Counted from the first letter of the stretch, positions 16,308-56,583 are shown. The stretch is 64,000 nt of DNA from an archaeon (GCA_020057405.1 JAGVFW010000002.1:1621-65620); one strand, 5' to 3'. Notes: generated from the sequence alone by a model not told the origin. Translations and numbers: made by a program.

Positions 16308-16318
16308 TTTTCTCTCCC

Positions 16319-19300
16319 TCATTCGCTTAATCTCAACTCGCTTGTGACCGTGCTGTTTACGTAAATCCAGTAGCCGATTCCGGCTTCCATTCTCTTTAGG
16401 GTATTGAATGTCGAGTCCAAAGTCGGGTCGTAGGTTAGCCACTTTCCTGACGATTGGTTGTAGGCTTGTACTTTGGTGAAGTTGCTGGAGAGGTTTGCTA
16501 GCGCGTCGCTTGTGGCTCTGCCTTCGTATGGGTAGGCGAACATGTTCCAGCCGTGCGGGAATTGTAGTGTGGTGCTTGTTGGTCTAAAGCCGTTGTCTGT
16601 CATGAATGTGGCGTTTACGTTCATGAGTATCCAGTACCCTTCGCCGATGGAGAATTTGGATAAGGTTTGGAAGGATGAGCTGACGCTCGTGTCGTAGGTG
16701 AGCCATTTTCCTTGGGTTGCGTTGTAGGTTTGTATTTTAGTGTAATTTTCGTTTATTGGTGAGAGTACGCCTGTGATGTTTGCGTTTGTTGGCAGTACCA
16801 TGAATGAGGCGAGGTTCCAGCCTTTGGTGAGGTTGAGTCTCCAGACGTAGAGGTAGCCGGTCGAGTAGTTTTTGCTCGTGAGGTATGAGTTGTTGGCGCT
16901 GCACCAGATGTAGTACTTGCCTACTGGCCAGCTTCTGATGTCGCAGTTTCCTGCTCCGTCGTTTGGCGTGTCGCTAAAACAGGTTTGATTCTTGTTGAAG
17001 CTAGAGTTAGTAGAGTCGCCATAGCAACTGATGCTCAGCGTTAAGTTAGTTGGATCAGAGGCGCCATAGTAGATGTCAGTTGGCGCTCCCGTCACATAGG
17101 GCACTGAAGGTTCACTCAGCGTAATCGTAGGTGCACCGTACTGGTCGCTGAGGTTGATGCTCGTAGCCGTTAATCTGCCGTTGCTGGGATTGATGTAGGT
17201 CGTATATGTTTTCGTGCCGTTTGTTGTAGCGTTAAGTATCCACGTAGCTGACCTTATGTTAAAACCACCTCCGTACTTTATGTCGCCAAGATTGATGCTT
17301 GTGTTTCCAGGCCCGTAAGTTACGGTAACAGCGTCTTGCCGCGTAACTCGCATTCCTAAAACGCTCACTCCAGCTGGAGGGACGAAATCCATGAAAACGC
17401 TTGACGACATGTACTGCTGGGTGTTTGCAGAGGTTGTTATTTCAAATGGCTTTCCTACGGTTATAACCGAAACATTAGCCGTTGAGTGGAGAACAACTTC
17501 CGGTCTCAATTCGCCTCGGATAATCATATAGCCAATAACGAGGTTTCCCATAGTATCTGGAGTAGTACTAAAAGTGCAGGCCTTCAACTCTGTTGTGCCA
17601 CTAGGCGGGTTATCAATCGCCACGTACTGCTTATTATCAAAAGACTGAACTGAATCGTTCGTACCGGTTTGGCATAATCCCCCTGTCGCTCCAGGATCAA
17701 CGTATAGGCCAATATCGTTCCATACTGCCTTTGAATTCCCTACGTCGGCTGCTTTTTCACTCCAGGCTAGTACTACAACTAAGCGTTTGACGCCGCTAGG
17801 GAGGGTTAGGTTATACCTGAAAGCGCCACTGCCTCCGGAGACATTGCCAAAAAGAAGACCAGATTGCCATCCTGTCGGATCATTCGCTTGAAAGTGTGCA
17901 AGAACCGAGTCGACCTTCCCTGCACCAAAGGTGTTCATGAAATCCCGTCCAACGGTTTGGCTTAGATCGATCTTAGTTGAATTTAGGGGTATGGCACTCA
18001 TCATCAACAAAGCTTTAACCGCGGAAGCGTTGCCTTTCAACCAAGGATAATGATCCATCAAAGTCGCCACGACGCCGGCCACTGCGGGTGCAGCAAAACT
18101 AGTTCCCGAATCGGTTGTATAGCCCCCTGTCGTTGAATTTGCGGCAGTAATCAAGTAGCCGGGTGCGCTTATGTCTGGTTTAGTGCGATTATCTGGTGTA
18201 AATCCTCGGCTTGATTCATTATCGATGGTATCCCCCGAATTATTTCCGTTATCAAGAATGCTTCCGACAGTTATGGCGTTTTTAGCGCAGTTAGGTGCAT
18301 AGTTAATCGTTTGGAACGCAGGCCCATTATTAGCTGCTGAAATTACGTAAGTTTGGTTCTGAAAATAAGTTGCGTTATCTAAAGCCCTACTTACTGGATC
18401 CGTGCCGCAAACACCGCTAAGTAACCCGGCGGTATCGCTTATCGATACTAGGGTCGGATAAGGTGTGGTGTTTGAAATCCAACCTATATAGTAGGCTAAG
18501 CTGTGGTTGTCAGATTGATAAAGTGCGAAGGTAAGGTTACTAATTCCTGGCGCTATTCCTAAGTATTTTTGATTGCTAAGATTTCCTCTGCCAAGGAGGA
18601 TGCTTGCGACAAATGTCCCGTGGCTCTGATTTGATTGCACATAAGCCGCAGAGGCACATACTCCATTTGGACAAAGTGAGTTAGTATAGTTAGGTAAGTC
18701 TGGAAACGTGTTGTTATAGTCTAGATCTATTATGCCAACTGAAACGTTCCTTCCGTCATAGCGGAGGGGATTACCATCGAGATTAATGTTTCCTCTAAAA
18801 TAATCAGCACTAACTGCAGAGCTAGCCAGATTCATCGTTGGTTGACCGTGTTCTAAATCGAGTTCGACGTATACTACTTCGTTTCTATTGGCCATATTAC
18901 TTATTGATGCGAGTGGAATTTCGGCATGGTAGGCACTAATTATTGGAAGGTACGTTAGGGAATTGACTTCGATGGATTTTAGGTAGTTTTCTAAGTCTGA
19001 TTCAGCACCCCTGAATGGAGTAATGTATACTTTGACTTTCTCCGAAAGATCTGCTTTTGTTTTAATCATCTCGTAAAGTCCCGGAGTCATTTTTTGATTT
19101 TGTCGATTAACTCCGACCCACCTTACGAACGGAAGAGTTTGTAATCTGCTTAGGTCACTTAGTGGAATTTTTGCAAGTATCGAGTGATATGTGTGGTAGC
19201 CAAGAAAGACGGTGCCTTCTTGTTCGATAATTTTAAGCTTTTCTTTATCGATGCTATCGTTCACCATAATGAAGCCATAGAAATAGGGTTTTCCCGTTAC

Positions 19301-19561
19301 GTCGATCACAGATGAAATTTCAGAATCAAGTTTGACGGAAGGGTCCGGCGTATATTGTACGTTATCGAATACTAGAGAATACGGTTCAGTTCTTCTGTTT
19401 ACGTTATTTGCTGTGATTTCTTCTTGCGTTAATGGTTCTGCTTTTAAGTAGCCTAGAGCAATATCTTGGACGGCAGGTTCAAGATTATTTGAAAATTTGC
19501 TAAGGGCATTAACTGACGTAAATAAAATAAGTGCAATGGCCAAGATGGCAAACTTCCTCAT
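16319..19561 (-). CDS. secreted subtilisin-like serine protease (peptidase S8) with a long C-terminal multi-domain extension
   Basis: Signal 'MRKFAILAIALILFTSVNALS'. Catalytic triad motifs present: 'VGIIDLD' (Asp), 'HGTFVASI' (His), 'GTSFAAPAVAGVVATL' (Ser). Many N-X-S/T sequons. Low-GC gene. Confidence 0.85.
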   Translation of the reverse strand: MRKFAILAIALILFTSVNALSKFSNNLEPAVQDIALGYLKAEPLTQEEITANNVNRRTEPYSLVFDNVQYTPDPSVKLDSEISSVIDVTGKPYFYGFIMVNDSIDKEKLKIIEQEGTVFLGYHTYHSILAKIPLSDLSRLQTLPFVRWVGVNRQNQKMTPGLYEMIKTKADLSEKVKVYITPFRGAESDLENYLKSIEVNSLTYLPIISAYHAEIPLASISNMANRNEVVYVELDLEHGQPTMNLASSAVSADYFRGNINLDGNPLRYDGRNVSVGIIDLDYNNTFPDLPNYTNSLCPNGVCASAAYVQSNQSHGTFVASILLGRGNLSNQKYLGIAPGISNLTFALYQSDNHSLAYYIGWISNTTPYPTLVSISDTAGLLSGVCGTDPVSRALDNATYFQNQTYVISAANNGPAFQTINYAPNCAKNAITVGSILDNGNNSGDTIDNESSRGFTPDNRTKPDISAPGYLITAANSTTGGYTTDSGTSFAAPAVAGVVATLMDHYPWLKGNASAVKALLMMSAIPLNSTKIDLSQTVGRDFMNTFGAGKVDSVLAHFQANDPTGWQSGLLFGNVSGGSGAFRYNLTLPSGVKRLVVVLAWSEKAADVGNSKAVWNDIGLYVDPGATGGLCQTGTNDSVQSFDNKQYVAIDNPPSGTTELKACTFSTTPDTMGNLVIGYMIIRGELRPEVVLHSTANVSVITVGKPFEITTSANTQQYMSSSVFMDFVPPAGVSVLGMRVTRQDAVTVTYGPGNTSINLGDIKYGGGFNIRSATWILNATTNGTKTYTTYINPSNGRLTATSINLSDQYGAPTITLSEPSVPYVTGAPTDIYYGASDPTNLTLSISCYGDSTNSSFNKNQTCFSDTPNDGAGNCDIRSWPVGKYYIWCSANNSYLTSKNYSTGYLYVWRLNLTKGWNLASFMVLPTNANITGVLSPINENYTKIQTYNATQGKWLTYDTSVSSSFQTLSKFSIGEGYWILMNVNATFMTDNGFRPTSTTLQFPHGWNMFAYPYEGRATSDALANLSSNFTKVQAYNQSSGKWLTYDPTLDSTFNTLKRMEAGIGYWIYVNSTVTSELRLSE

Positions 19562-19659
19562 CTACTGCATATCCGTAGCGGTGTGGAGTTTAAATTACTT
19601 TGGTAGGGTTTGCATCAACTAGCAGTTTATTGCGAACATTAGTGGGAGTTGAGTGGCTT

Positions 19660-21114
19660 TTAGTGTACTGGCGTAAAGTAAAAAATTTGAAATTCTTTTT
19701 TACCATTTTTATCTATTAAGTTAATGGAGCATGTCTGATTAGAATTCGGATTTAAATTTCGTGGGGCAAATTTGCTCTGAAATTCAAACTGGTTTTCCTC
19801 TGTAAAGTTGTAGTTAAAAATAGGGGGATATTCATCGAGTGGAAAGCTGTAACCATTGTTTCCAGAATTATCGGTGCAATTTCCTGAAATCCATTCTTCG
19901 TCATTAGTGCTAGTATTGCTAATGATGTATAGATCTATAGGGTGCGGCGGAACATCAACGCAGCTATGGACTCCAGTTAGATTATAGTCAAATTTCAATG
20001 CTGGCGTGCCATTGTCGAGAAATAAATCTGAGAAACCACAATTTTTTAATCCGTATTCGGGATATGTGCTAATTGATATGCAGTAATTCTGAATAATTTT
20101 TGCGACTCCGCTTTCATTTACTTGGGTGCATCTTTGTTGTAGGGTTTGTTGTCTCCAGTCTGGTTCGGGTTTGTTCCAGTTGTTGGGCTCAGTTTCGTGA
20201 TAGGTGAAGTTAAGTGCTAGTTTTGTTTCACTATTTTCGTTCACTTCGAGGGCGCAAGCGTATTGGGTCGTGTTCCATTCTTGGTTTCCTTGGGTTGGGC
20301 GTAAGAGCCAGTATGTGAATGAGCGTGAGGCGTCAAGGGGGCAGTTGTCTTTTTCGAAGTGGGCGTAGGTCGTCGTTGTTTCTGGCGAGGTGCATTTGAC
20401 GGTTATGTTGGCGTTTGCTTGGTGGTCGGAGTAGATTTTGAAGCTTTGCCAGTGAGAGTTGGCAATTAGTCGGGCGTTTTCGAATGGTGCAGTGAACTGG
20501 GTTCGGCATATGTTTCCGATGCAATTCCACGGCCAGATTGAACTCCGGTCGTTTAAGTCAATCTGACTCCAGTTGATATTAATCGCAAAGTTTGTCTGCG
20601 GGTCAGAAGTTAAGTGTGAATAGCTAGAATCTAAGTCGCGTAGGTAGAGGCAGTAGCCGTTCTGAAAGAAGGCCAGTCCAGTTTCGTTTGCTAGGCCGTG
20701 GCATTGCGTTTCCGTTAAGTCGGCAATCTCGCTTCGGTCAACTAGATAGAAGTTTACTCCGTTGGGGTTGCTGTCGGGGCCAACTGTGAGGCCACAGTTA
20801 GTGGGATTGCGTTCAGGGCCTTGCTGCTCGCTTGTACCGTAACCGAGGCCTATATCGTTAGGTCCTCCGTTGCCACCCGAACCTGGGGTTGGAGTTGGCG
20901 TGACTTCTGGCGTTGGAGATGGTGTAGGTGACGGCGTGGCTGTAGGTTCGGGTGTGGGAGTTGGCGTGAGTGTGGTGTTTGATGAGCTGCCGTCAGTGTC
21001 GTTAAAGCCGCCGCCAAAGGTGTGTATGGTTTTGGAAACTTCTTCTATGCAGCCAGCAAAAATTAGTGCAAAAGATAGCGCAACTGCGCAAAATGCCAAA
21101 ACACTCAGTTTCAT
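19660..21114 (-). CDS. secreted Cys-rich protein with an N-terminal lipobox-like signal and a Pro/Thr-rich linker
   Basis: 'MKLSVLAFCAVALSFALIFAGCIEE' looks like a signal peptide with an [LI]-[AF]-A-G-C lipobox. It is followed by 'TPTPTPEPTATPSPTPSPTPEVTPTPTPGSGGNGG'. About 20 Cys in the C-terminal domain. Very low GC. Confidence 0.6.
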   Translation of the reverse strand: MKLSVLAFCAVALSFALIFAGCIEEVSKTIHTFGGGFNDTDGSSSNTTLTPTPTPEPTATPSPTPSPTPEVTPTPTPGSGGNGGPNDIGLGYGTSEQQGPERNPTNCGLTVGPDSNPNGVNFYLVDRSEIADLTETQCHGLANETGLAFFQNGYCLYLRDLDSSYSHLTSDPQTNFAININWSQIDLNDRSSIWPWNCIGNICRTQFTAPFENARLIANSHWQSFKIYSDHQANANITVKCTSPETTTTYAHFEKDNCPLDASRSFTYWLLRPTQGNQEWNTTQYACALEVNENSETKLALNFTYHETEPNNWNKPEPDWRQQTLQQRCTQVNESGVAKIIQNYCISISTYPEYGLKNCGFSDLFLDNGTPALKFDYNLTGVHSCVDVPPHPIDLYIISNTSTNDEEWISGNCTDNSGNNGYSFPLDEYPPIFNYNFTEENQFEFQSKFAPRNLNPNSNQTCSINLIDKNGKKEFQIFYFTPVH

Positions 21115-21178: not shown

Positions 21179-22099
21179 CTAACCCTTAAGCACCTCGAAC
21201 TTGCTTTCGTAGTCGGATTCCTTTAGTTGCTTGAAGCGCGCGATGCCCTCCTTGAGCGTGGGGATCTTGCGGCCGAGCGTTTTCTCAAGCTTGCTTGAGT
21301 TTAGCGACACGTCGCGCGGGCGGTTTGCCGCAAGCATGCCGTCCTTTAGCTCAACTGGCTCGATTAGCGCCTTGTCAAAGCCGAAAGTCTCTGCCATTTG
21401 GGTTGCGAACTGCACGCGGTTGACGCGGTCGGGCGCCCCGCAGTGGAAAATTCCGGTCGCGTCGCTGACCACGAGCTCGCTAATCACCGCCGCCAAATCG
21501 TTTGCAAGCATCGGCGTGTTGAACTGGTTTGAAAACGCCTTGAATGGCGTTCCAGCGGAGAAGCTTTCGTAGAACATCATCGCGTAGTTTTTCTTGCCCC
21601 GCACGTTAAGGCCGTACATCGTCGTCCGCACTGCGGCGAAGTTGCCTCCTGCAGCGACGACGGCATTCTCGCCGTTGAACTTTGAAACAGAATAGTAGTT
21701 GGCCGGGTTCGTCTCGTCTGTCTCGACGTACATTCCTCCCGGTTTCTTGCCGTCGAAGACAAAGTCGGTCGAGACGTGAACGAGGCGAATGTCTTTTGCC
21801 TTGCAGTAGGCGGCGGCATTGGCGGGTGCAGTTGCGTTTAGCGCGTCCGCTTCGGCGTGGTGGTCTTCGCAGTAGTCGACGTTTGTAAGGGCCGCAGTGT
21901 GGATGATTGCGTCTGGTTTAGCGCTGTCGAATGCGGCCTTTAGGGCGGCAGGGTTGCAAATGTCGGCCTTGAGGCTACTGCAGTTGCCGTACTTGACGAC
22001 GCTTGCGTCGCTAAGTAAGTAAAGCTCATGGCTTTGCGAAAGTTTGTGGGCGAGTGCTGTGCCAAGCAGGCCAGTTCCGCCCGTTACTACAATGCGCAT
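21179..22099 (-). CDS. rmlD: dTDP-4-dehydrorhamnose reductase-like (RmlD family SDR)
   Basis: 'MRIVVTGGTGLLGTAL' and RmlD-like length/architecture (about 306 aa). The start is taken at 22099, after a G-rich SD-like stretch. The track ORF starts at 22138. Confidence 0.6.
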   Translation of the reverse strand: MRIVVTGGTGLLGTALAHKLSQSHELYLLSDASVVKYGNCSSLKADICNPAALKAAFDSAKPDAIIHTAALTNVDYCEDHHAEADALNATAPANAAAYCKAKDIRLVHVSTDFVFDGKKPGGMYVETDETNPANYYSVSKFNGENAVVAAGGNFAAVRTTMYGLNVRGKKNYAMMFYESFSAGTPFKAFSNQFNTPMLANDLAAVISELVVSDATGIFHCGAPDRVNRVQFATQMAETFGFDKALIEPVELKDGMLAANRPRDVSLNSSKLEKTLGRKIPTLKEGIARFKQLKESDYESKFEVLKG

Positions 22100-22116
22100 G
22101 CTTTTCTTGCCCCCCG

Positions 22117-23142
22117 TTAAATCAGCTTGTCTTTCCAAGTGAGGGGGATTTTGTCGCTGTGCAGCTCGAAGTCGTCGAGGTAAACCGGCTTTTGGGCGCC
22201 CATTGAGCGCGCCCAGGCTATCATCTTCTCGATTCCGTCTTCAAGGTGCACGGTTGTGTTGTAGCCAAGCATCTTGCGCGCCTTGTCAACGGTGCAGTAC
22301 GCTTCCTTGACTTCCTTTGGCCTTGGCGGCAGGTGCTTTGGAGTGTATTTCTTGTCCCAGTCCTTCGTGCCGAAGTACTTCTCGAGCACGATTTCCCCAA
22401 GGTGGTTGATCGTGACTTCCTCGACTGGCCCGATGTTGAAGATTTCGCCGTTGACCTTGTCGTCAAACCCGGCTTTGGTAATGTAAGGTGTGAAGTCGTC
22501 GATGTAGGAGAACGCGCGCGTTTGCTCGCCGTCGCCGTAAACGTAGAAGTTCTTGTTGTTCATCAGGCAGTTGATGAAGATGCTCATGACATTGCGGTAG
22601 GGGTCAGACAGGTTCTGTCGCGGGCCGTAGACGTTGTGAGGCCGGATAATCGTGTAGTCGAAGTTGTGCACTTCGCTCAAGATTTCCGTCGAGCGCTCCA
22701 TCGCGGTCTTGGCAAGGCCATAGATATCCTCGGGCTTGCGGTCAAGGTCCTCCGAGAAGGGTGGCGTCTGCGCGCCGTAGACGCTCATGCTGCTAGTCAG
22801 CACGACTTTCTTTAGCGCTCCGCTTCGGATTGCGGGGACTAGCGTGTTGAGGTACGCCATGTAATTGCGTTCGGTGCACTGCACAGGCGTGAATTGGCTT
22901 CTCCCTTCGGTCGCGTCGGCGGCCAGATGGTAAATGAGCTCTGGCTTGATTTCAGAAACGTACTTGTTCGTCGCCTCGCGGTCGCGCAGGTCGAGTTGCT
23001 TGAACTTGCAGGCAGGGTTGACGTTTCGCATAAAGCCGCCGCTAAGATCGTCGACGCTGTGCACTTCGTGGCCCTTGGCAACGAGGGCATCTGCTAGGTG
23101 AGAACCCATGAAACCGGCTGCGCCGGTGACTAGTATACGCAT
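22117..23142 (-). CDS. NAD-dependent nucleotide-sugar epimerase/dehydratase (extended SDR)
   Basis: 'MRILVTGAAGFMGSHLADALVAKGHEV' Rossmann motif with a YxxxK catalytic motif. Confidence 0.8.
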   Translation of the reverse strand: MRILVTGAAGFMGSHLADALVAKGHEVHSVDDLSGGFMRNVNPACKFKQLDLRDREATNKYVSEIKPELIYHLAADATEGRSQFTPVQCTERNYMAYLNTLVPAIRSGALKKVVLTSSMSVYGAQTPPFSEDLDRKPEDIYGLAKTAMERSTEILSEVHNFDYTIIRPHNVYGPRQNLSDPYRNVMSIFINCLMNNKNFYVYGDGEQTRAFSYIDDFTPYITKAGFDDKVNGEIFNIGPVEEVTINHLGEIVLEKYFGTKDWDKKYTPKHLPPRPKEVKEAYCTVDKARKMLGYNTTVHLEDGIEKMIAWARSMGAQKPVYLDDFELHSDKIPLTWKDKLI

Positions 23143-48260: not shown

Positions 48261-51200
48261 GTGGGTTTAGTGGTCGATACTTTAGTTCTTGCTATCTCGG
48301 TCATTCTCTTCGCAATTCCGGGCATTTTCCTCTCGGCAGCGCTATTTCGGCGAACGTCGCTTGACTGGCTTGAGAAGGGGTTACTTGGTGTAGTCTTAAG
48401 CTGCGTGGCAATGCCCGTGCTTGCCATCCTCGAGCTCGTCTTTTTCGCAATCAAGTTCAACGGCATGCTGCTTTTCGCCAACTTCCTTCTCCTGGTACTC
48501 GTCGCCATCGTCGCCTACGCTTACCAGGGAATGCCAAAGCTAGAGTTTCACCGCCCGCGCATACCATTCCTTGACGGAAAGTTTGAGTGGGAAAAGGACA
48601 AGAATCTAGTCTTCGGCGCGGTTCTGTTAATCCTGCTGCTCATTACCTTCTGGGTCAGGTTCGCACCCGCCTGGGCGGATAACTTTTTTGAGTTCGACCC
48701 TATTTTCTACAGCCACGTTACGGAAATACTGGCGAAGAACGGCGTCATCCCTGCCGAGTCAAGCGAAGTTTACTACCCGCTGACGAAAGACCTGCGTGTT
48801 TACCCTATTGTGCCCTACTTGGGGGCGCATATTTACGCGATTTACCACGCGATTGTCGGCGGCCCGTTCATCAAGTCAGACTTTCACTTAGTCATCGAGA
48901 TTTACCCGCCCCTTATGGCAATACTCACTTCATTTGCAGTCTACCTGCTCTTCCGCCGGCAGGCGAATGACTGGATTGGCCTGATAGCGGCTGGCACGCT
49001 GGCGACAATGCCGCAGCTAGTCAGCAAGTTCGGTGCAGGTGTCAACGAACTGCAGCCGTGGGGCCTCTTCAGCGCCGTTTTCGTCATCGCAGCCACCTTC
49101 CTTGCAATGTCGCAAAAGAGCTACCGCTTCGCAGTCTTGGCCGGCATCGGACTCTTCGGAGCCATGCTTGGCACGGCGCAGGGCCTCTGGCCTGCAGCAG
49201 CAATCGCCTCTTTCTTCCTGCTTCACGCGCTCGTTTCCTACCTTCGCGAGGAGTTAGATTTCCGTGCGGTCGCCATTTACGCCATCATCGCCCTTCCGGG
49301 AGTCCTCGGCGCGCTCTTGTTTAACTTCTACCGCTCGGGCCTGACGCTCGGAATTGGCAACCTGATGTCGAATGCAGGTGCGTTGTTCAAACTCGGCACA
49401 CTCCAGTACCTGCTTATCGCCGCAGTTGCAGTCGCCGTGTTCCTGCTTGCAGTTCAGCAGTTCGTCCTGCCCAGGCTAAGGCAGGTCACGCCTCACCCGA
49501 AGCCCGTCAGCGTTGCTGCAATGCTGATTGCGCTGGCAATAGTCTTCATCGCAGTCCCGGCTGTTCCCGGCATGCTCGGCGATTTTCTCAACAGTTCCGC
49601 CGGCTTTGCCCGACAGGGGAGTGCCCTGGGCATGACGATTGCAGAGGAAAACGCGACCACGCCCGGCCTGTACTTCGGCGCGTTTGGCAACATCAATCCC
49701 GATGTCCTCCTTCCTGCCGCCGCGCTTCTAATCTCCCTCTTCGCGTTCATCAAGCTCTTGATTGCCGGTAGACGGATTGCGGCTGGCGCTGTTGTATTGG
49801 GTGTGCTGCTTATCACGGCGTTCAACTCGTTTACCGACTCGATGCTTTTGTGGGTTGCCAACAACCTGTTGAGCGGCTATTCGCTTTTCACGCAGTTTGT
49901 CACCGGCAACGACTTGTTCGTCTACATGCTTGTTTCCATCATCTCGCTATTGCTTGCCATGCTCCTCGTCAGGGAAGACCCGATTCCGTCGGAGCTTCTC
50001 TACCTCGTCATCGCAATTTTCCCCGTCGCCTACATCGGCTTAAACAAGCTCAAGTTCATGCCGCACCTGGCACTTGCCCTGGCAATCGCGTTCCCGTTCG
50101 CCCTCTCTATGGGCCTCAAAATCATCCAGACGCTCTCGACCGAGCTTAAGGGCGAGAGTGGCCGCAAGATTGCTGTGAAGGCCGGCCTTGCCCTCATCGT
50201 CATCATCGGCGGTCTAGTGCTTTACGCGCAGTCAAACACGCTTGACAACTCAATGGCAGGCCTGCAGTACACCCGCATCTCGAGCGACTGGCTGTCAAGC
50301 TACGAGTGGATGCGCACGGCACCCTCGTTTGACAAGTCATTCTGCACCAACACTTACGGTTACGACTGCCGCGTGCTCTCATGGTGGGATTACGGCCACT
50401 GGACTACGTTCTTCGGCGAGCAAAAGAGCGTGCTTGACCCCGGCAACCGCTATCCTGACTTCAACCAAGGCACGGCAAGGGCTTTTGTCCAAGGCAACAT
50501 CACTGACCTGCTTTACACCGTTCGCTACCACCAGGCGACGCACATTCTTGCCGACGCGCAGCTAGTGCAGAAGTGGGGCGCACTCGTGTTCCTAAGCGGC
50601 ACGTGCGCGCACTCGCAGTACGCAACCTGTCCAGAGAAGCCCGAGATTGACTACAAGAACGGCGCCGGCAGAAGCACTTACGAGGCCGAGCACTACTTCG
50701 AGTTCCTCACGAGTTCCGGCACCTGCCCAGCGCAGTTGACCGGCGTGGCGTTACCCGCATTCAAGAGCAGCCTGACGAACGCCGTCTACTGCTTTACCGA
50801 CACGGAGTACCTGCTTTTGACTTCGCAGGGCATCGACCCGAACTTCAAGCGCAAGTACAAGATAATCGGCCGCGACACTGTCGACGCCGCGCGCCTAGAG
50901 AAGGACACGGCTTACCTCTTCGGCTACACGCAAGGCCAGTTCATCAACGTGAACCCCGACCTCACCTACGTCGGCCTGAACAACACGGTCATCGACTCGG
51001 CCTTCACGCGCCTCTTCTTCTTCGAGTACATGCCTGGAATGCAGCTTGACCACCGCTCGCCAAGCGGCGAAGTAAAGATATTCCGCATCCTACCGGAGTT
51101 CATCAGCGGCTCTACAATCGCAAGCAGCAGCAACTTAGCGTCGACGCCAAGCCCGACTCCGATACCCTCGGCAACTCCCGAGCCAACGCCGAGTGCAAAC

Positions 51201-51320
51201 GAGACTGGAACTAACCTGACCTCATCAAGCCCCACTCCTTCGGCTAGCTCGTCAGTAACGCCGAGCCCAACGCCGGCGCCTTCAACAAGCCCGACGCCCG
51301 TTCCCTCGCCCACGCCATAG
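48261..51320 (+). CDS. aglB: archaeal oligosaccharyltransferase AglB (STT3 homologue) with a C-terminal Pro/Thr/Ser-rich tail
   Basis: About 13 N-terminal TM segments. The diagnostic 'WWDYGHW' (in 'CRVLSWWDYGHWTTFFGE') sits in the C-terminal soluble domain. The final about 65 aa are 'PSPTPIPSATPEPTPS...SPTPVPSPTP'. Confidence 0.9.
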   Translation: MGLVVDTLVLAISVILFAIPGIFLSAALFRRTSLDWLEKGLLGVVLSCVAMPVLAILELVFFAIKFNGMLLFANFLLLVLVAIVAYAYQGMPKLEFHRPRIPFLDGKFEWEKDKNLVFGAVLLILLLITFWVRFAPAWADNFFEFDPIFYSHVTEILAKNGVIPAESSEVYYPLTKDLRVYPIVPYLGAHIYAIYHAIVGGPFIKSDFHLVIEIYPPLMAILTSFAVYLLFRRQANDWIGLIAAGTLATMPQLVSKFGAGVNELQPWGLFSAVFVIAATFLAMSQKSYRFAVLAGIGLFGAMLGTAQGLWPAAAIASFFLLHALVSYLREELDFRAVAIYAIIALPGVLGALLFNFYRSGLTLGIGNLMSNAGALFKLGTLQYLLIAAVAVAVFLLAVQQFVLPRLRQVTPHPKPVSVAAMLIALAIVFIAVPAVPGMLGDFLNSSAGFARQGSALGMTIAEENATTPGLYFGAFGNINPDVLLPAAALLISLFAFIKLLIAGRRIAAGAVVLGVLLITAFNSFTDSMLLWVANNLLSGYSLFTQFVTGNDLFVYMLVSIISLLLAMLLVREDPIPSELLYLVIAIFPVAYIGLNKLKFMPHLALALAIAFPFALSMGLKIIQTLSTELKGESGRKIAVKAGLALIVIIGGLVLYAQSNTLDNSMAGLQYTRISSDWLSSYEWMRTAPSFDKSFCTNTYGYDCRVLSWWDYGHWTTFFGEQKSVLDPGNRYPDFNQGTARAFVQGNITDLLYTVRYHQATHILADAQLVQKWGALVFLSGTCAHSQYATCPEKPEIDYKNGAGRSTYEAEHYFEFLTSSGTCPAQLTGVALPAFKSSLTNAVYCFTDTEYLLLTSQGIDPNFKRKYKIIGRDTVDAARLEKDTAYLFGYTQGQFINVNPDLTYVGLNNTVIDSAFTRLFFFEYMPGMQLDHRSPSGEVKIFRILPEFISGSTIASSSNLASTPSPTPIPSATPEPTPSANETGTNLTSSSPTPSASSSVTPSPTPAPSTSPTPVPSPTP

Positions 51321-51367
51321 GCTAAGCGCGGAACGTAATCTTAGCGAATCCAGCCCGCGGGCCCCGT

Positions 51368-51398
51368 AGTTGCCTTATAGTGTTTTCCCTAGGCAACT
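51368..51398. terminator. hairpin between the convergent aglB and aglH-like genes (candidate bidirectional terminator)
   Basis: Perfect 8-bp inverted repeat 'agttgcct'(51368-75) / 'aggcaact'(51391-98) with a 15-nt T-rich loop 'tatagtgttttccct'. The 3' half overlaps the GPT stop codon. Confidence 0.3.
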
Positions 51399-52435
51399 GC
51401 GCTCTTTACTAGGATGAGTGAAGCCACGACTATTACGGCTTCAGCGAGAATGAGCGTCGCAACCGCGTTTCGCTCAGTCGGCCTCACGCCAAGCTTCGGT
51501 AGGCCCTTTAGCACGACGTGCGTGAGCGAGTAAATCTTTTCGTAAGGCGCCTTTAGCGTGCCGTCGGGCTGCAGCACTCCATATGAGCGGGCAGTAAAGC
51601 CGCTGCGCAGCTTCAAAAACGCCTCGACAATCCAAGGCAGGAAGATGTAGAAGCCGATTTTCTCGACGTTGCCGACGATTACCGCGCTTGCGTACATCGC
51701 ACCGGCAAAGTAGGTGAGGCTGTCGCCCGGCAGCATTCGCGCCGGCACCATGTTGAACGAGTAAAACGCGAGCAGAGCGCCTGCGCCGAGAAAGGCGATT
51801 GCAGCGCCCTCAATCGAGCCGTTTAGGTAACTCCAGATGCCGACGCCGACTGAGGCAACCGCCATCATGCCTGACTCTAGGCCGTTCATGCCGGCAAGCA
51901 TGTTGGCGGCATTGCTCACGACGACCACGCCGATTGGCACGAGAATGAGCGGGTAGAGGATGCCTAAGCTGACGGGGCCGACGAGGGGCACGTTCATTGT
52001 CTCGACCCCCGCGCTGACTGCGACGAGCGGTATGGCCGCGACGAGGGTAAGGAGCGGCTTTTGCCATTGCGCCAGGCCCACGCGGTATTCCTTGCTGCCG
52101 TACTTGTTCGCAACCATCTGGCGGCGCACGTACAAGTCGTCAAAAAAGCCGACGAGGGCAATCGCGAGGGTGCTTAGCGATGCCGCCAGCAGTTCAATCA
52201 TGCTTAGGGGGTACTTGAAGAAGAAAGTGTTGAGCGCAAGTAGCGCCATCATGCCGAAGAAGAAACCAAATGCAACCGCAATCCCGCCGCTTGTTGCGAC
52301 TTTGCGCTTGTCCGCCTTCTGCTGGTCAATGCCAACTATGCCGATGTTCCAAAGAAAGTGCAGGAAGTAGGGTGTGATGTAGAGGGTTACCACTGCGGTC
52401 AGAAGCACGCCTATCGAGAGCAGCAGTAGAGTCAT
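51389..52435 (-). CDS. aglH: UDP-GlcNAc:dolichyl-phosphate GlcNAc-1-phosphate transferase (AglH/GPT; MraY/WecA superfamily)
   Basis: About 10-TM protein. 'FFDDLYVRR' (DDxxY) and 'SNAANMLAGMNGLESG' correspond to MraY/WecA/GPT motifs. The start is taken at ATG 52435 (MTLLLL); the longer track ORF would run through the divergent promoter and into nucS. Confidence 0.7.
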   Translation of the reverse strand: MTLLLLSIGVLLTAVVTLYITPYFLHFLWNIGIVGIDQQKADKRKVATSGGIAVAFGFFFGMMALLALNTFFFKYPLSMIELLAASLSTLAIALVGFFDDLYVRRQMVANKYGSKEYRVGLAQWQKPLLTLVAAIPLVAVSAGVETMNVPLVGPVSLGILYPLILVPIGVVVVSNAANMLAGMNGLESGMMAVASVGVGIWSYLNGSIEGAAIAFLGAGALLAFYSFNMVPARMLPGDSLTYFAGAMYASAVIVGNVEKIGFYIFLPWIVEAFLKLRSGFTARSYGVLQPDGTLKAPYEKIYSLTHVVLKGLPKLGVRPTERNAVATLILAEAVIVVASLILVKSAVA

Positions 52436-52487
52436 CGAAATGATTTGCGCGGGCAAATTATATAGATTGCTGCCCCAAGCCATATTC
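52436..52487. promoter_or_regulatory. bidirectional archaeal promoter with a central TATA box 'AAATTATATAGA' for aglH-like (-) and nucS (+); both transcripts predicted leaderless
   Basis: 52-nt gap. The TATA-like 'caaattatatagattg' is centred about 26-27 nt from each start codon (52435 and 52488). Confidence 0.5.
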
Positions 52488-53288
52488 ATGGTTCCTTTGG
52501 GGGAAGCTGCAAAAGCAATCCAAACCGGCATGGCCAGGCGCGAGCTCGTCCTCGTCGTCGGCCGCTGCAAAGTAAGCTACGAGGGCCGGGCCGCAAGCAA
52601 GCTCTCCGAGGGCGACAGGCTCCTAATCATCAAGCACGACGGCACTTTCCTCGTCCACCAGAGCGCCAAGATGTCGGCAATAAACTACCAGGGCCCGGGT
52701 GCATTCGTCAGCTGTGAACTGGCTCTCGACCCCAACGACCGAAAGAAGCGCGAGCCGGTCGCAATCGTCCTCTCGGCAAAGCGAAAGCTGGCCAACGGCG
52801 CAGTTGAGCAAATCGTCGTCAGGTTTACCGAAATTCTTTACGCCGGCGCCTACGGGCTAAAAGACGATTCCCACCTCAAGCTCTTCGGCACTGAAAAAGA
52901 GTTGGCTGACCTCCTCATGTCGGACCTGCACCTGATAGAGCCCGGCATGGTGCCCCTCAAGCAGGAAAGCGACGTGCGAAAAGGCACCATCGACATCCTC
53001 GCCCGCGATGCGGCGGGAAATACGGTGGTTATTGAGGTCAAGCGCCGCATTGCCGGGCTAGAGGCAGTCACGCAGCTCGAACGGTACGTAAAGGAGCTTT
53101 CCCAGCGCCGCGGCTCTAAAATCCGCGGCATCTTGTGCGCACCCGACGTAACCGCAAGCGCCCTCAAAATGCTTGAGGAGTCAGGCGGCCTTGAGTTTGC
53201 CAAGCTCGACTACGAAATTGCCAACCCGAGTGCGAAAATCCGCGGCCTGCAGAAAAAGCAGAAGATAATCACCGAGTACTTCGGGTGA
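52488..53288 (+). CDS. nucS: endonuclease NucS (mismatch/branched-DNA nuclease, RecB-fold)
   Basis: N-terminal 'LVLVVGRCKVSYEGRAASKLSEGDRLLIIKHDG' matches NucS 'ARCKVHYDGRA..GDRVIIIKPDG'. C-terminal 'IDILARDAAGNTVVIEVKRR' is a RecB-like D...EVK nuclease motif. The start is taken at ATG 52488. Confidence 0.85.
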   Translation: MVPLGEAAKAIQTGMARRELVLVVGRCKVSYEGRAASKLSEGDRLLIIKHDGTFLVHQSAKMSAINYQGPGAFVSCELALDPNDRKKREPVAIVLSAKRKLANGAVEQIVVRFTEILYAGAYGLKDDSHLKLFGTEKELADLLMSDLHLIEPGMVPLKQESDVRKGTIDILARDAAGNTVVIEVKRRIAGLEAVTQLERYVKELSQRRGSKIRGILCAPDVTASALKMLEESGGLEFAKLDYEIANPSAKIRGLQKKQKIITEYFG

Positions 53289-53676: not shown

Positions 53677-53709
53677 CTTTTATAAGTGCAGCGTGCGTAA
53701 ACCCATATT

Positions 53710-54669
53710 ATGGCCCCCTCAAAGTCTCGCCTCGCCCTACGCAAGGCGCCGTTTATCGGCAAGGCGGGAGGTTCGCTTTTCTCAAAGCCGGCTTCGGTGA
53801 AAGAAAAGCCAGAAGAGGAAGAGCCAGTAGTCGAGGCCGTAGCCGAGCCAAAGCCCGCGCCAAAGGCGTCCAAAAAAGACGACGCCGATCTTGACGCAAA
53901 GCTGCGTGAAGTTAAGAGCAACCTTGCGGCGATTACCGCCAAGACGCGCAAGGGCGCCGACATAAGCGATGTCCCGCGCATCCCAACCGGCGTTCCGGGG
54001 CTCGACGAGCTCATTCCCGGCGGCATCCCGAAGGGCAGCGTCATTCTCGTCGTCGGGGGACCCGGCAGCGGCAAGAGCATTTTCTCGCTCCAGTTTCTCC
54101 TAAACGGCGCGCTAAAGTACGGAGAGCCAGGCGCCTACATTTCGATGGAAGAATCGGAAGAGAGCATCAAGCGCACGGGCGAGATGTTCGGCTGGGACGT
54201 CGATGATTTGGAGAAAAAAGGGCTTTTCCACGTGGTGTGGCGCGACCCTTATGATGTGAAGAGCTTCGCAAAAGTCATGGGCGGCCAGCTCTACTACCTC
54301 ATCAAAGACGCCGGCATCAAGCGCATCGCCTTTGACAGCATCACCTACTTTACGCTCACAGAAGAGAACCGCTTCAAGCTAAGAAAGGAAATCGCGGAAC
54401 TTAGCACGCGGCTAAAGGCGGTCGGCGTGACTAGCCTCTTCATCTCCGAAGTACCGCAGGCGGAAATGCGAAAAGGACGCTACGGCATGGAGGAATTCGT
54501 CGCCGACGGCATCATCCTGCTAAACAATTTCATGGTGCGCGATACCCACGTGCGTGCGGTCGAAGTGCTCAAAATGAGGCACACGCACCACGACACGCTG
54601 CTCCATCCCTTCGCGATTACGAAGAAGGGCCTTGAAATCTATCCTCATGAGCTCGTCTTTAAGGACTAG
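53710..54669 (+). CDS. KaiC-like/RecA-superfamily ATPase (single-domain archaeal KaiC homologue) with a disordered Lys/Glu/Ala-rich N-terminal extension
   Basis: 'GVPGLDELIPGGIPKGSVILVVGGPGSGKSIFSLQFL' (Walker A) and '...GIKRIAFDSITYF...' fit KaiC architecture. The N-terminal about 95 aa are low-complexity. Confidence 0.85.
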   Translation: MAPSKSRLALRKAPFIGKAGGSLFSKPASVKEKPEEEEPVVEAVAEPKPAPKASKKDDADLDAKLREVKSNLAAITAKTRKGADISDVPRIPTGVPGLDELIPGGIPKGSVILVVGGPGSGKSIFSLQFLLNGALKYGEPGAYISMEESEESIKRTGEMFGWDVDDLEKKGLFHVVWRDPYDVKSFAKVMGGQLYYLIKDAGIKRIAFDSITYFTLTEENRFKLRKEIAELSTRLKAVGVTSLFISEVPQAEMRKGRYGMEEFVADGIILLNNFMVRDTHVRAVEVLKMRHTHHDTLLHPFAITKKGLEIYPHELVFKD

Positions 54670-54688
54670 TGCCTGCGGGGAGGCCGGG

Positions 54689-55513
54689 CTATTGGGCGTC
54701 CGAAGCGGGCCCGCCGGCTTCGCCTGTGCTTCCCTCTTTTGCAACCGGCGAGTCAAACGAGTGGCGCTTGACGAACTTCTTGATGTGCTTCCACGAAATT
54801 GCCTTGTCAATCTCGACAATGGCAACAAACGCGAGCAAGCCGATTACGCCAAGCAGCTGCACCATCGAGTCAGGAATTAGGCCGAGGCGCAAAAGAATGT
54901 CAAGCTGGCTTAGGAGCAGCACCGAGAGCATCAAGAGCGCGTGGGCGGGAAGGTACGCTTTTAGGTTCGGCTCATTAAATGACGCGCCAAGCCTCATGCC
55001 TGCGTAGTAGTAAAGCACCGCCCCAGTTGCCGTTGCGAGGGCAACCGCCACCGCCACCGGATAGGCCTGGGCGGGTGCCAGTGACGGCATTGAAAGGGCA
55101 AGCATCGTCGCGGCCAGCATGAAGAAGAATAGCACGAGCTCTGTAGCGACGGGCTTCTTGACTGAAAACGAGTAGGCGTGGCTCAAATCGAACAGGGGCT
55201 TTATCGAGAGGAACGCCGCGACGATGAAGAAGGAGAAGACGAAGCTGCGCAAAAGCGCGTACTCGCCTGCAGGAATGGCCAGGAGGAACGCCGCGATTGG
55301 CAGCTCGTAGAATGCCGTGACGGACAAAAGCGCAAGCGAGTGCCACATGAGGTGGCGTTTTACGAGCGGCTCTTTGACGCTTTTGACCAAGTCATGGCGC
55401 TGGCGGATGCTGCCGTAAAGCGAATAGATGACGAGGACTGCCGTCAGAAGGTAGATTGCAGCAACGTCCGCGGCCACTCCCCAAATCACCCGTACTCTAT
55501 TGTCTTGTCGCAA
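54689..55513 (-). CDS. 7-TM integral membrane protein of unknown function
   Basis: 274 aa with about 7 hydrophobic helices and a hydrophilic C-terminus 'KRHSFDSPVAKEGSTGEAGGPASDAQ'. Its first 28 nt overlap the upstream degenerate RecA-like gene. Confidence 0.5.
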   Translation of the reverse strand: MRQDNRVRVIWGVAADVAAIYLLTAVLVIYSLYGSIRQRHDLVKSVKEPLVKRHLMWHSLALLSVTAFYELPIAAFLLAIPAGEYALLRSFVFSFFIVAAFLSIKPLFDLSHAYSFSVKKPVATELVLFFFMLAATMLALSMPSLAPAQAYPVAVAVALATATGAVLYYYAGMRLGASFNEPNLKAYLPAHALLMLSVLLLSQLDILLRLGLIPDSMVQLLGVIGLLAFVAIVEIDKAISWKHIKKFVKRHSFDSPVAKEGSTGEAGGPASDAQ

Positions 55514-56028
55514 ACGCCTTCAAGGAGCGACAGGAGTTCCTTTGACAGCTCGCCGGTTGAGATTAGCACGCAGCTGGCGTTTTTCAGCCGAATCTTGTTC
55601 GTGGTAAAGTGCGCGAACTTCTCAATCGTGGCAAGCGGGTTGTAGACCAAAAGCGTGTTCATAGAGTCAAACACGACCGCCCTCTTTCCCTTTAGTTCGT
55701 CGAGCAACTCGTTGATTGCCAGGCTCAGGCCCGTCAGGTTTTGCGGCGCGACAGAAATTAGCTTGTCCTTGCGCTCGGTTTCCCCGCTTACGGCAGCGGT
55801 GGCGCAGTCGATGAAGTAAATGCCCTTTGAGTCGACTTCGGACTCCTTTAGCCGCGCAATAATTGCAGGGGCGGGCTTGTTGACTGAAACATAGATGATG
55901 TTGGCGTCCTCGCGCAAGAGCCGCCGGATGATGTCAACCGTGGCACCAGCGTAGTCACTGGGCTCGACGAGGAGCAAGTAAATCACTGAATCGCGCTTGA
56001 GGTTTAACTCGTCGCGCGCCGATGCCAT
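55486..56028 (-). CDS. RecA/KaiC-fold protein lacking a canonical P-loop (degenerate KaiC-like, probable regulatory partner)
   Basis: 'SVIYLLLVEPSDYAGATVDIIRRLL...IIYVSVNKPAPAIIARLKESEVDSKGIYFIDCAT' has KaiC-like beta-alpha topology but no GxxxxGK[ST]. Confidence 0.45.
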   Translation of the reverse strand: MASARDELNLKRDSVIYLLLVEPSDYAGATVDIIRRLLREDANIIYVSVNKPAPAIIARLKESEVDSKGIYFIDCATAAVSGETERKDKLISVAPQNLTGLSLAINELLDELKGKRAVVFDSMNTLLVYNPLATIEKFAHFTTNKIRLKNASCVLISTGELSKELLSLLEGVCDKTIEYG

Positions 56029-56091
56029 CCAATCATCCCCGCTTTACGAACTCCGTTGAAGTTAAAAAAACGCTGTGTTGCCCCCGCCGGC

Positions 56092-56583
56092 TCACGCCTC
56101 GACGTAGACGATGCCGTTCCCTGCAATCCCGACGCCATCGTGGTACTCAAACTTGCCGGCCGTGTTAAACGCGCGGCTCCATGACTGGCCCCCTCCAAGA
56201 TTGTGCGAATCGAATTCCTCGCTGCTGCCGGCATCGCTCTTGATGTCGTGCAGCCGGCCGTCCTGGTTTTGCCAAGTCACTTTAGTGCCCGCCTTGACCC
56301 AGATGGCCCGCGGATTGAAGCCCGCATTCACAATCAACACGGTGTCGGTGCCGATGACTCCCGGAATCTCGTGCGGCGCTGGTGTAGGAAGCGGAGTCAA
56401 AACCGGCGTTGGGGTGGGTACGGGCGTGGCCGTGGGCTCAGGGGTCGGTGGCATTGGCGTGCGGTAAGCTTTTTTGCCAAAAAGCGTGCCCTGAACGTCG
56501 TTGGCCAGATTGTCCACCGTGTACGAAACGCATCCGGCCATGATTATCGCGACAAGCGCCAGTGCAATAAGTGGCTTGTTCAT
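56092..56583 (-). CDS. secreted lipobox protein with a PT linker and a cupredoxin-like domain lacking the type-1 copper ligands
   Basis: 'MNKPLIALALVAIIMAGCVSY' lipobox-like signal, then 'PTPEPTATPVPTPTPVLTPLPTPAP'. The C-terminal 'FNPRAIWVKAGTKVTWQNQDGRLHDI...GKFEYHDGVGIAGNGIVYVEA' parallels amicyanin/halocyanin topology, but the Cys ligand position is Asp. Confidence 0.5.
   Translation of the reverse strand: MNKPLIALALVAIIMAGCVSYTVDNLANDVQGTLFGKKAYRTPMPPTPEPTATPVPTPTPVLTPLPTPAPHEIPGVIGTDTVLIVNAGFNPRAIWVKAGTKVTWQNQDGRLHDIKSDAGSSEEFDSHNLGGGQSWSRAFNTAGKFEYHDGVGIAGNGIVYVEA

Follow-up and report, generated by a model that had tools for sequence, protein, structure and literature searches.

The locus and its genes

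The locus described here occupies positions 53,710 to 56,028 of a 64,000-nucleotide stretch of archaeal DNA (GCA_020057405.1, JAGVFW010000002.1:1621-65620), which we call the window, and it encodes a KaiC-like ATPase (KaiC319), a membrane protein with seven transmembrane helices (the 7-TM protein) and a protein of 180 amino acids (aa) that we identify as an inactivated KaiC (iKaiC). An earlier note on this DNA had placed three open reading frames (ORFs) here and had proposed that they form a membrane-associated signalling module, and all three ORFs are indeed present. The features of the locus are the following.

53677-53686, plus strand: TATA-box-like element CTTTTATAAG, about 28 nt 5' of the KaiC ATG, read from the sequence
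53710-54669, plus strand: single-domain CI-like KaiC-family ATPase, KaiC319, 319 aa, assigned by PF06745 and its motifs
54689-55477, minus strand: 7-TM membrane protein, 262 aa from GTG 55477 (the longest ORF reaches TTG 55513), assigned by its ORF, its orthologues and a Shine-Dalgarno (SD) site
55485-55490, minus strand: GGTGAT, SD-like site of the 7-TM gene, overlapping the TGA stop of iKaiC
55486-56028, minus strand: inactivated KaiC, iKaiC (Pfam DUF7504, PF24336), 180 aa, assigned by Pfam, AlphaFold2, Foldseek and hhalign

An intact KaiC and a P-loop-less relative

Residues 91-314 of KaiC319 match PF06745 over model positions 1-230 of 231 (E = 3.5e-66; 223.3 bits against a gathering threshold of 26.6) and the Walker A (GGPGSGKS), catalytic (MEESEES) and Walker B (IAFDS) motifs are all intact, so that the protein is the single-domain KaiC homologue that it had been taken for. 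In the alignment of KaiC proteins G119, G121, K122 and D209 are invariant and E147/E148 nearly so (at least 90%). Comparison with PDB sequences (phmmer) gave 147 bits for the CI domain of KaiC and 82 bits for CII, and E values of about 1e-41 for the single-domain archaeal proteins PH0186 and PH0284. The protein falls below the NCBIfam thresholds for circadian KaiC (circ_KaiC, 174 bits against a cut-off of 408; PRK09302, 135 against 546), and it consists of one domain whereas circadian KaiC is a double CI+CII protein of about 500 aa. An N-terminal extension of about 90 aa precedes the domain, and the composition of residues 1-87 (A15/K14/P8/S8/E8) agrees with its earlier description as rich in K, E and A. 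The TATA-like element upstream suggests, as far as it can be read from the DNA, that the KaiC gene has its own promoter and a leaderless mRNA. A role in defence was considered and rejected, as PADLOC returned nothing relevant and the match to mad8 (19 bits) was confined to the P-loop.

The iKaiC of the window is a member of DUF7504 (54.1 bits, gathering cut-off 27); it scores below threshold for DUF835 (PF05763, 25.2 against 33.1 bits), DUF7090 (24.8 against 27) and KaiC, and is related to DUF835 without being a member of it. Its AlphaFold2 model, computed with seven homologues as input, has a mean predicted local distance difference test (pLDDT) score of 86.5 and a predicted template-modelling (pTM) score of 0.84. 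The best Foldseek matches of this model were SSO2452 (2w0m) and PH0284 (2dr3), at a template-modelling score (TM-score) of 0.77, followed by FlaH (4yds, rank 3) and KaiC-CI, all with probability 1.00. Alignment of profiles with hhalign, comparing 19 iKaiC family members with 10 neighbouring KaiC ATPases, gave a probability of 93.8% (E = 1.7e-7). Family membership, predicted model, structural matches and profile alignment therefore concur, and the P-loop-less KaiC/RecA fold that the earlier note had read into this protein is confirmed at the level of the model; structure prediction was among the checks that the note had proposed, a non-RecA fold being the outcome that would have spoken against it.

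The profile alignment also points to the positions at which the protein would have lost its activity. The segment EPSDYAGAT of iKaiC lies opposite the KaiC P-loop GPGSGKS, and VNKPAPA lies opposite MEESEES, with the catalytic glutamates gone. The Walker-B aspartate is retained, the protein ends about 45 aa short of the KaiC C-terminus with the KMR/arginine-finger region absent, and no invariant G/K column was found among the 19 aligned family members. An invariant signature of another kind, DS..TL..YN followed by KF[AS]HF..[NT]K, runs through the family alignment. Judged by these motifs the protein fits the definition of an inactivated KaiC, in which the fold is kept and the nucleotide-binding and catalytic motifs are lost.

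The membrane protein and the start of its gene

The AlphaFold2 model of the 7-TM protein (pLDDT 66.8) contains seven long helices, in agreement with the number of membrane segments first assigned to it, and a short C-terminal amphipathic helix. The numbers of K+R residues in its successive loops (0/6/0/2/0/2/0/7) give a topology with the N-terminus outside and the C-terminus inside, which puts all the loops that are conserved and positively charged on the cytoplasmic side of the membrane, the side of iKaiC. Two cytoplasmic juxtamembrane motifs, DLSHAYSF after TM3 and KKFVKRHSF after TM7, are among them, and their ..YSF/..HSF tails are conserved in the orthologues. The protein has zero Pfam or NCBIfam matches. 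A Foldseek search of the PDB gave a best E of 0.095 for this low-confidence model, a generic seven-helix bundle with a TM-score of about 0.58 to proteorhodopsin; a microbial rhodopsin or GPCR-like identity was rejected, neither sequence nor fold matches being significant. Neither do we claim an internal duplication, the similarity between the N- and C-terminal units in searches with the 3-TM profile (see below) being weak (E = 0.1-0.4).

The 7-TM gene had been thought to overlap the iKaiC gene by 28 nt, an artefact of taking the longest ORF, in which TTG 55513 is simply the first possible start. We place the start at GTG 55477 because the public gene call for the orthologue P0009 is 262 aa long, because orthologues begin at the equivalent residue (P0010, MAEEV..; also MAEAT..), because the spacers in orthologous iKaiC-7-TM pairs measure 4-5 nt (loci L001, L002 and L034; L and P numbers denote loci and proteins of the survey below), and because GGTGAT at 55490-55485, which we take to be the complement of the archaeal anti-SD, sits 7 nt 5' of this codon. 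The spacer between the iKaiC stop and GTG 55477 is then 8 nt, with the ribosome-binding site lying over the upstream stop codon; if translation began instead at GTG 55489, in the same frame, the genes would overlap by 4 nt (GTGA). The two genes are tightly packed at either start, and coupled translation or expression of iKaiC and the 7-TM protein is plausible from this arrangement.

Conservation of the gene association in other archaea

iKaiC has few close relatives: a word-indexed search of 5.8 billion sequences yielded 8 and a profile search yielded 58, most of them already annotated as PF24336. From genome and metagenome scans and contig look-ups we assembled 41 loci, corresponding to 28 non-redundant iKaiC lineages, and mapped in all 41 the ORFs, the hydrophobic segments and the homologues of the window proteins. 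The named hosts are all archaeal metagenome-assembled genomes, mostly of the DPANN, which are tiny symbiotic archaea (Micrarchaeota, Aenigmatarchaeota, Parvarchaeota, Woesearchaeota, Pacearchaeota and Nanoarchaeota) with one of Altiarchaeota. By sequence the clade of the window appears Micrarchaeota-like, its nearest named relative being L005 at 52%.

A gene for a small multi-TM protein lies directly downstream of iKaiC on the same strand in 18 of the 28 lineages. The corresponding figure for a background of genes from these loci that lie over 2.5 kb off is 10 of 134 (7.5%; binomial p = 3e-14). The combination that defines a KaiC/iKaiC hub, an active KaiC together with an iKaiC in several lineages, was found in 13 of the 28 lineages within the fetched locus (p = 4e-6 against a generous chance expectation of 11%), and in four arrangements. 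The KaiC gene follows iKaiC on the same strand in L003, L013, L014 and L026/L039 and precedes it on the same strand in L015, while the two genes diverge in L007 and converge in the clade of the window. KaiC belongs to an operon-like string with gaps of 10-40 nt in L003, L013, L014 and L015. The link between iKaiC and the membrane-protein gene is strong and that between iKaiC and the KaiC gene is good; the absence of such co-occurrence, which the earlier note had named as grounds for dismissing its proposal, is not what these loci show. Taken with the gene order, these counts support a functional tie between iKaiC and the polytopic membrane protein encoded downstream of it.

Among closer relatives the association extends to two further genes upstream of iKaiC, for a cupredoxin-domain protein and a membrane protein, memb244 (see below). 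The string memb244-cupredoxin-iKaiC-7-TM with a convergent KaiC is kept at iKaiC identities of 85% (L001) and 72% (L033, L034), and cupredoxin-iKaiC-7-TM is kept at 52% (L002). Between the window and L033/L034 the identities are 93% for KaiC, 72% for iKaiC, 70% for the 7-TM protein, 66% for memb244 and 62% for the cupredoxin, so that the constraint on the ATPase far exceeds that on the putative partners encoded beside it.

Small membrane partners, fusions and sensor domains

Outside the clade of the window the gene that follows iKaiC usually encodes a protein of about 105-125 aa with three TM helices. These 3-TM proteins, for which no Pfam match was found, share the motifs RRF.KG.F after TM1 and KFS..YGF after TM3, and the conserved loop and tail that carry them face the cytoplasm. 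The 7-TM and 3-TM proteins are alike in gene position, in a 3-TM N-terminal unit and in the ..YSF tail motif, a resemblance of position and motif only. Tandem 3-TM arrays of 2-6 paralogous copies, placed directly after iKaiC, occur in L007 (6497-8369), L016 (5378-6338), L021 (1065-3154) and L038 (6558-7518).

Elsewhere iKaiC and membrane segments are joined in one polypeptide, with two C-terminal TM helices in P0059 (L041, 6001-6885) and P0060 and two N-terminal ones in P0043, from Altiarchaeota. The gene of P0059 adjoins a cluster encoding a PAS-histidine kinase, REC, CheD, CheR and a CheX-like protein. Sensor domains recur in the surroundings of other family members: the gene order is 2-TM HAMP protein, iKaiC and hemerythrin-KaiC fusion in L013; TM-HAMP-PAS protein, iKaiC, 3-TM protein and hemerythrin-KaiC in L026 and L039; and HAMP-PAS, iKaiC and 3-TM protein in L025 and L030. 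The presence of HAMP/PAS sensors and hemerythrin-KaiC fusions in these related loci favours a signalling role. While related loci thus supply HAMP, PAS and hemerythrin as input domains, the window has the 7-TM protein and the cupredoxin only.

In the KaiC proteins encoded beside iKaiC the domain is usually preceded by an N-terminal extension that is basic and of low complexity (53710-53985 in the window; L003, L007, L013, L021, L026). Within these extensions a weakly conserved helix, approximately [AE][EQ]IKEQRxPL and AKLREVKSNL in the window, lies about 25 aa before the KaiC domain, and in the KaiCs of L013, L026 and L039 the hemerythrin domain is inserted upstream of it. In P0038, P0046 and P0051 iKaiC itself bears, fused to its N-terminus, a K-rich extension similar to those of the KaiC partners.

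A proposed membrane-tethered pseudo-ATPase coupled to a KaiC switch

We propose, with a probability of about 0.55, that the locus encodes a DPANN-type, membrane-tethered pseudo-ATPase adaptor that is coupled to a KaiC ATPase switch. A membrane signalling model is preferred because the active site of iKaiC appears dead, because the conserved segments of its TM partners are cytoplasmic and because related loci bear sensors. In this model iKaiC is a predicted pseudo-ATPase, which would neither bind or hydrolyse ATP nor donate an arginine finger. Its expression would be coupled to that of the 7-TM protein, which would also tether it, most likely by way of the aromatic motifs conserved in the cytoplasmic juxtamembrane segments, of which DLSHAYSFSVKK and KKFVKRHSFDS are the candidate contacts for iKaiC. 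The membrane protein would anchor iKaiC and perhaps sense for it, and iKaiC would be the adaptor that docks this membrane component to the hexameric, CI-like KaiC encoded next door. By analogy with KaiC-CI, a slow conformational switch, the ATP-hydrolysis state of KaiC may then be set by, or read through, the tethered iKaiC. DPANN archaea have few classical two-component systems, and the outcome would be a transmembrane signalling device in such lineages. All physical contacts in this model are inferred, as are the stimulus, the output and the direction in which the signal would travel. The stimulus could, speculatively, be redox state, O2 or a metal, given the cupredoxin here and the hemerythrin domains elsewhere. 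We also raise, tentatively, the wider possibility of an as yet undescribed DPANN signalling system built of a 3-TM receptor or anchor (with a 7-TM derivative here), an obligatory iKaiC coupler and a CI-like KaiC switch, which may sense redox state, O2, metal or contact with the host.

Several observations weigh against the coupling of a membrane sensor to a KaiC switch. No KaiC was found in the fetched flank in 15 of the 28 lineages, where many contigs are short, and in the window itself KaiC lies on the strand opposite to iKaiC and the 7-TM gene, with a TATA-like element of its own, so that co-regulation is not evident; the KaiC and 7-TM genes are convergent, with 19 nt between their stops. 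The 7-TM protein is restricted to its clade, with three relatives among 1.84 billion representatives; no recognisable sensor domain was found in it, and its homology to the 3-TM family is not established (hmmsearch E = 0.01-0.6; hhalign E = 0.005 at a probability of 7%). KaiC319 carries EEF where CII has its S/T phosphorylation sites, which it lacks; it therefore looks like an ATPase switch, not like an autokinase of the CII type, and gives no indication of a phosphorylation relay. Finally, large secreted proteins are encoded directly after KaiC in several unrelated lineages, in L003 (2149-3966, 605 aa), L021 (4864-6030, at least 389 aa), L026 (7560-10511, at least 984 aa) and L039 (8578-12540, at least 1713 aa). 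These proteins have a signal peptide, are Ig-like or are rich in N-x-S/T sequons, and they would also fit envelope biogenesis.

Alternative explanations

The last of these observations is the starting point for the alternative that survives best, a machine for envelope or surface-protein biogenesis in which the KaiC hexamer would do ATP-driven work, iKaiC and the TM protein would form a platform and the secreted proteins would be the clients. The oligosaccharyltransferase AglB and a GT4 glycosyltransferase encoded close by in the window would suit such a machine, and the tandem 3-TM arrays of L007, L016 and L021 resemble structural subunits more than receptors. Giant surface proteins are nonetheless very common in DPANN genomes, which makes their adjacency a weak argument; the proximity of AglB and GT4 is seen in the window alone, the contig of the closest relative, L001, ending just past nucS; secretion or pilus ATPases, pilins and peptidases are all absent from the loci; and the HAMP, PAS and hemerythrin domains encoded nearby suggest sensing. 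We consider this explanation unlikely.

The iKaiC-TM pair could also function alone, with the KaiC of the window as an unrelated housekeeping ATPase that is convergent with it by chance. The opposite strand and the putative promoter of the KaiC gene would be expected in that case, and the lineages in which no KaiC was seen include loci fetched with flanks of ±6 kb (L006, L009, L016/L038, L040). The greater identity of KaiC between the window and L033/L034 (93%, compared with 62-72% for its neighbours) points the same way. Chance convergence accounts poorly, however, for the four arrangements in distant phyla and for the shared operon-like strings of L003, L013, L014 and L015, and we therefore regard this explanation as having a small probability, below that of the envelope machine.

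An ArlH (FlaH)-like accessory role at the motor of an archaellum or a type IV pilus is suggested by the rank of FlaH among the structural matches of iKaiC and by the known role of ArlH as a KaiC-like RecA-fold regulator that does not hydrolyse ATP and works at a membrane complex containing the polytopic ArlJ (PMC8978795). ArlH, however, binds ATP through an intact Walker A motif, which iKaiC lacks, and its partners are ArlI and ArlJ; arl genes are absent here, and no ArlI, ArlJ, pilin or other secretion-type ATPase gene appears in any locus map. KaiC319 reaches 37.6 bits on the NCBIfam ArlH model against a cut-off of 215 and iKaiC does not match it, all of which makes this alternative highly improbable. 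The Rad51-paralogue analogy of the earlier note has no support, and a recombination mediator of the RecA/Rad51-paralogue type linked to NucS is close to refuted: both proteins have a RecA-superfamily fold, NucS lies two genes off and KaiC319 has weak RadA, RadB and RecA matches, but its 223 bits on KaiC compare with 19-23 on RecA and RadB (cut-offs 27 and 172; RadB at 22.6 against 172.4) and 18-20 on RadA (cut-offs 259 and 361), iKaiC has a membrane protein as its obligate partner, and beyond the closest relative NucS is not adjacent.

Relation to known systems

Makarova, Galperin and Koonin (mBio 2017) are cited in PMC5847659 for the proposal of archaeal signalling hubs of active KaiC and inactivated KaiC (iKaiC, comprising DUF835 and MEDS), and the concept is also cited in PMC10983859. 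To the extent that these citing papers describe it, the proposal resembles the present case in that an active KaiC is encoded with an ATPase-dead protein of KaiC fold, with sensor domains in related loci, in archaea. It differs in that the iKaiC here is a stand-alone DUF7504 rather than DUF835 or MEDS fused to REC or PAS, and in that the partner which marks it out, a small multi-TM protein without a Pfam or NCBIfam model, has a gene of its own; the named lineages are archaeal metagenome-assembled genomes, mostly DPANN. A full-text search of the searchable library for DUF7504, PF24336 and DUF7090 found no paper, and these two families and DUF835 are uncharacterised archaeal KaiC-like families that have names without functions. 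The hub concept is therefore known, through the papers that cite the 2017 proposal, while the DPANN-wide module of DUF7504, small TM protein and KaiC, together with the 3-TM family, appears to be undescribed. A membrane-associated KaiC signalling module thus remains the best reading in view of the co-occurrence, the fold and the sensor-bearing loci, but the claim that pairing such proteins with a dedicated membrane protein is not a described system was too broad, and it can be kept for the form with DUF7504 and a small TM protein.

The CI domain of cyanobacterial KaiC is the best alignment of KaiC319 (147 bits) and shares with it Walker A, the EE pair, Walker B and the motif YG.EEFV.D; its behaviour as a slow-ATPase conformational switch that recruits partners is our working analogy. 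KaiC319 differs in its single domain, in the lack of the CII autokinase S/T sites and in its basic low-complexity extension. KaiA and KaiB turned up nowhere near KaiC319, in maps that involved no search aimed at them. The closest solved relatives are PH0284, PH0186 and SSO2452, proteins of unknown function, both for KaiC319 (about 1e-41) and for the iKaiC model (TM-scores 0.67-0.77). All three, annotated as RecA-superfamily ATPases, presumably keep the P-loop, which iKaiC has lost together with about 45 aa at its C-terminus, and we know of no membrane partner for any of them.

Of the candidate signalling proteins of archaea, KaiC-like ATPases have expanded most and are least understood, and the idea of KaiC hubs is still nearly all computational. 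A compact module of three small parts, a membrane protein, a pseudo-ATPase and an ATPase, that recurs over DPANN lineages both as separate genes and as fusions offers a tractable minimal test case for this hypothesis. It also gives a context to the orphan Pfam family DUF7504, and many DPANN genes now labelled 'hypothetical' fall into the unannotated family of small membrane proteins that it defines.

Neighbouring genes and other features of the window

Upstream of iKaiC on the same strand lie the two further genes of the syntenic string.

56092-56583, minus strand: cupredoxin-domain lipoprotein-like protein, 163 aa, 63 nt upstream of iKaiC, assigned by PF00127 and PF13473
56580-57314, minus strand: membrane protein memb244 with 5-6 TM helices, up to 244 aa, its stop overlapping the cupredoxin start by 4 nt, assigned by its ORF

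The cupredoxin is retained upstream of iKaiC in L001, L033, L034 and L035 (62-67% identity), and a cupredoxin also precedes iKaiC in L002; that it provides an extracytoplasmic redox or copper input is speculative. The spacer between the two genes (56029-56091, 63 nt) has a run of seven T, GCGTTTTTTTAAC, which could serve as an archaeal terminator, as a TATA-like element or as both, and iKaiC and the 7-TM gene may or may not be co-transcribed with the cupredoxin gene. For memb244 no Pfam match was found; its synteny is limited to close relatives (conserved in L001 and L033), and whether it belongs to the module is uncertain.

The rhodanese and NucS genes do lie upstream, NucS two genes away, as the earlier note had reported, but among the relatives only L001, at 85% identity, has them in synteny, which does not favour a functional link. 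The region 48261-52570, at a distance of 1-5 kb from the module, encodes an AglB/STT3 oligosaccharyltransferase of 1019 aa whose C-terminal tail is long and rich in P/T/S, followed by a convergent AglH-like GT4. A homologue of either was found in none of the related loci, where the L001 contig ends in a truncated ORF of 107 aa past nucS, and a link to glycosylation, suggested by adjacency, is not supported. Rhodanese, NucS, AglB and GT4 were therefore rejected as members of the module, their adjacency not being kept beyond the close relative or beyond the window.

Scans of the entire window for tRNA genes and for Rfam families were both empty. A scan for sigma-70 promoters and terminators gave 0 promoters, and terminators at the level of chance, and is uninformative as it applied bacterial models to archaeal DNA. 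A stretch of low GC content on the minus strand at 13560-21114 (0.41-0.52, compared with about 0.57 elsewhere) has a positive GC skew and encodes a 960-aa Laminin_G_3/ConA-like protein, a 1080-aa subtilase of family S8 and a 484-aa protein without a Pfam match; it may be a horizontally acquired or fast-evolving island of surface proteins, and it is followed at 21179-23142 by genes for RmlD and an RmlB-like epimerase.

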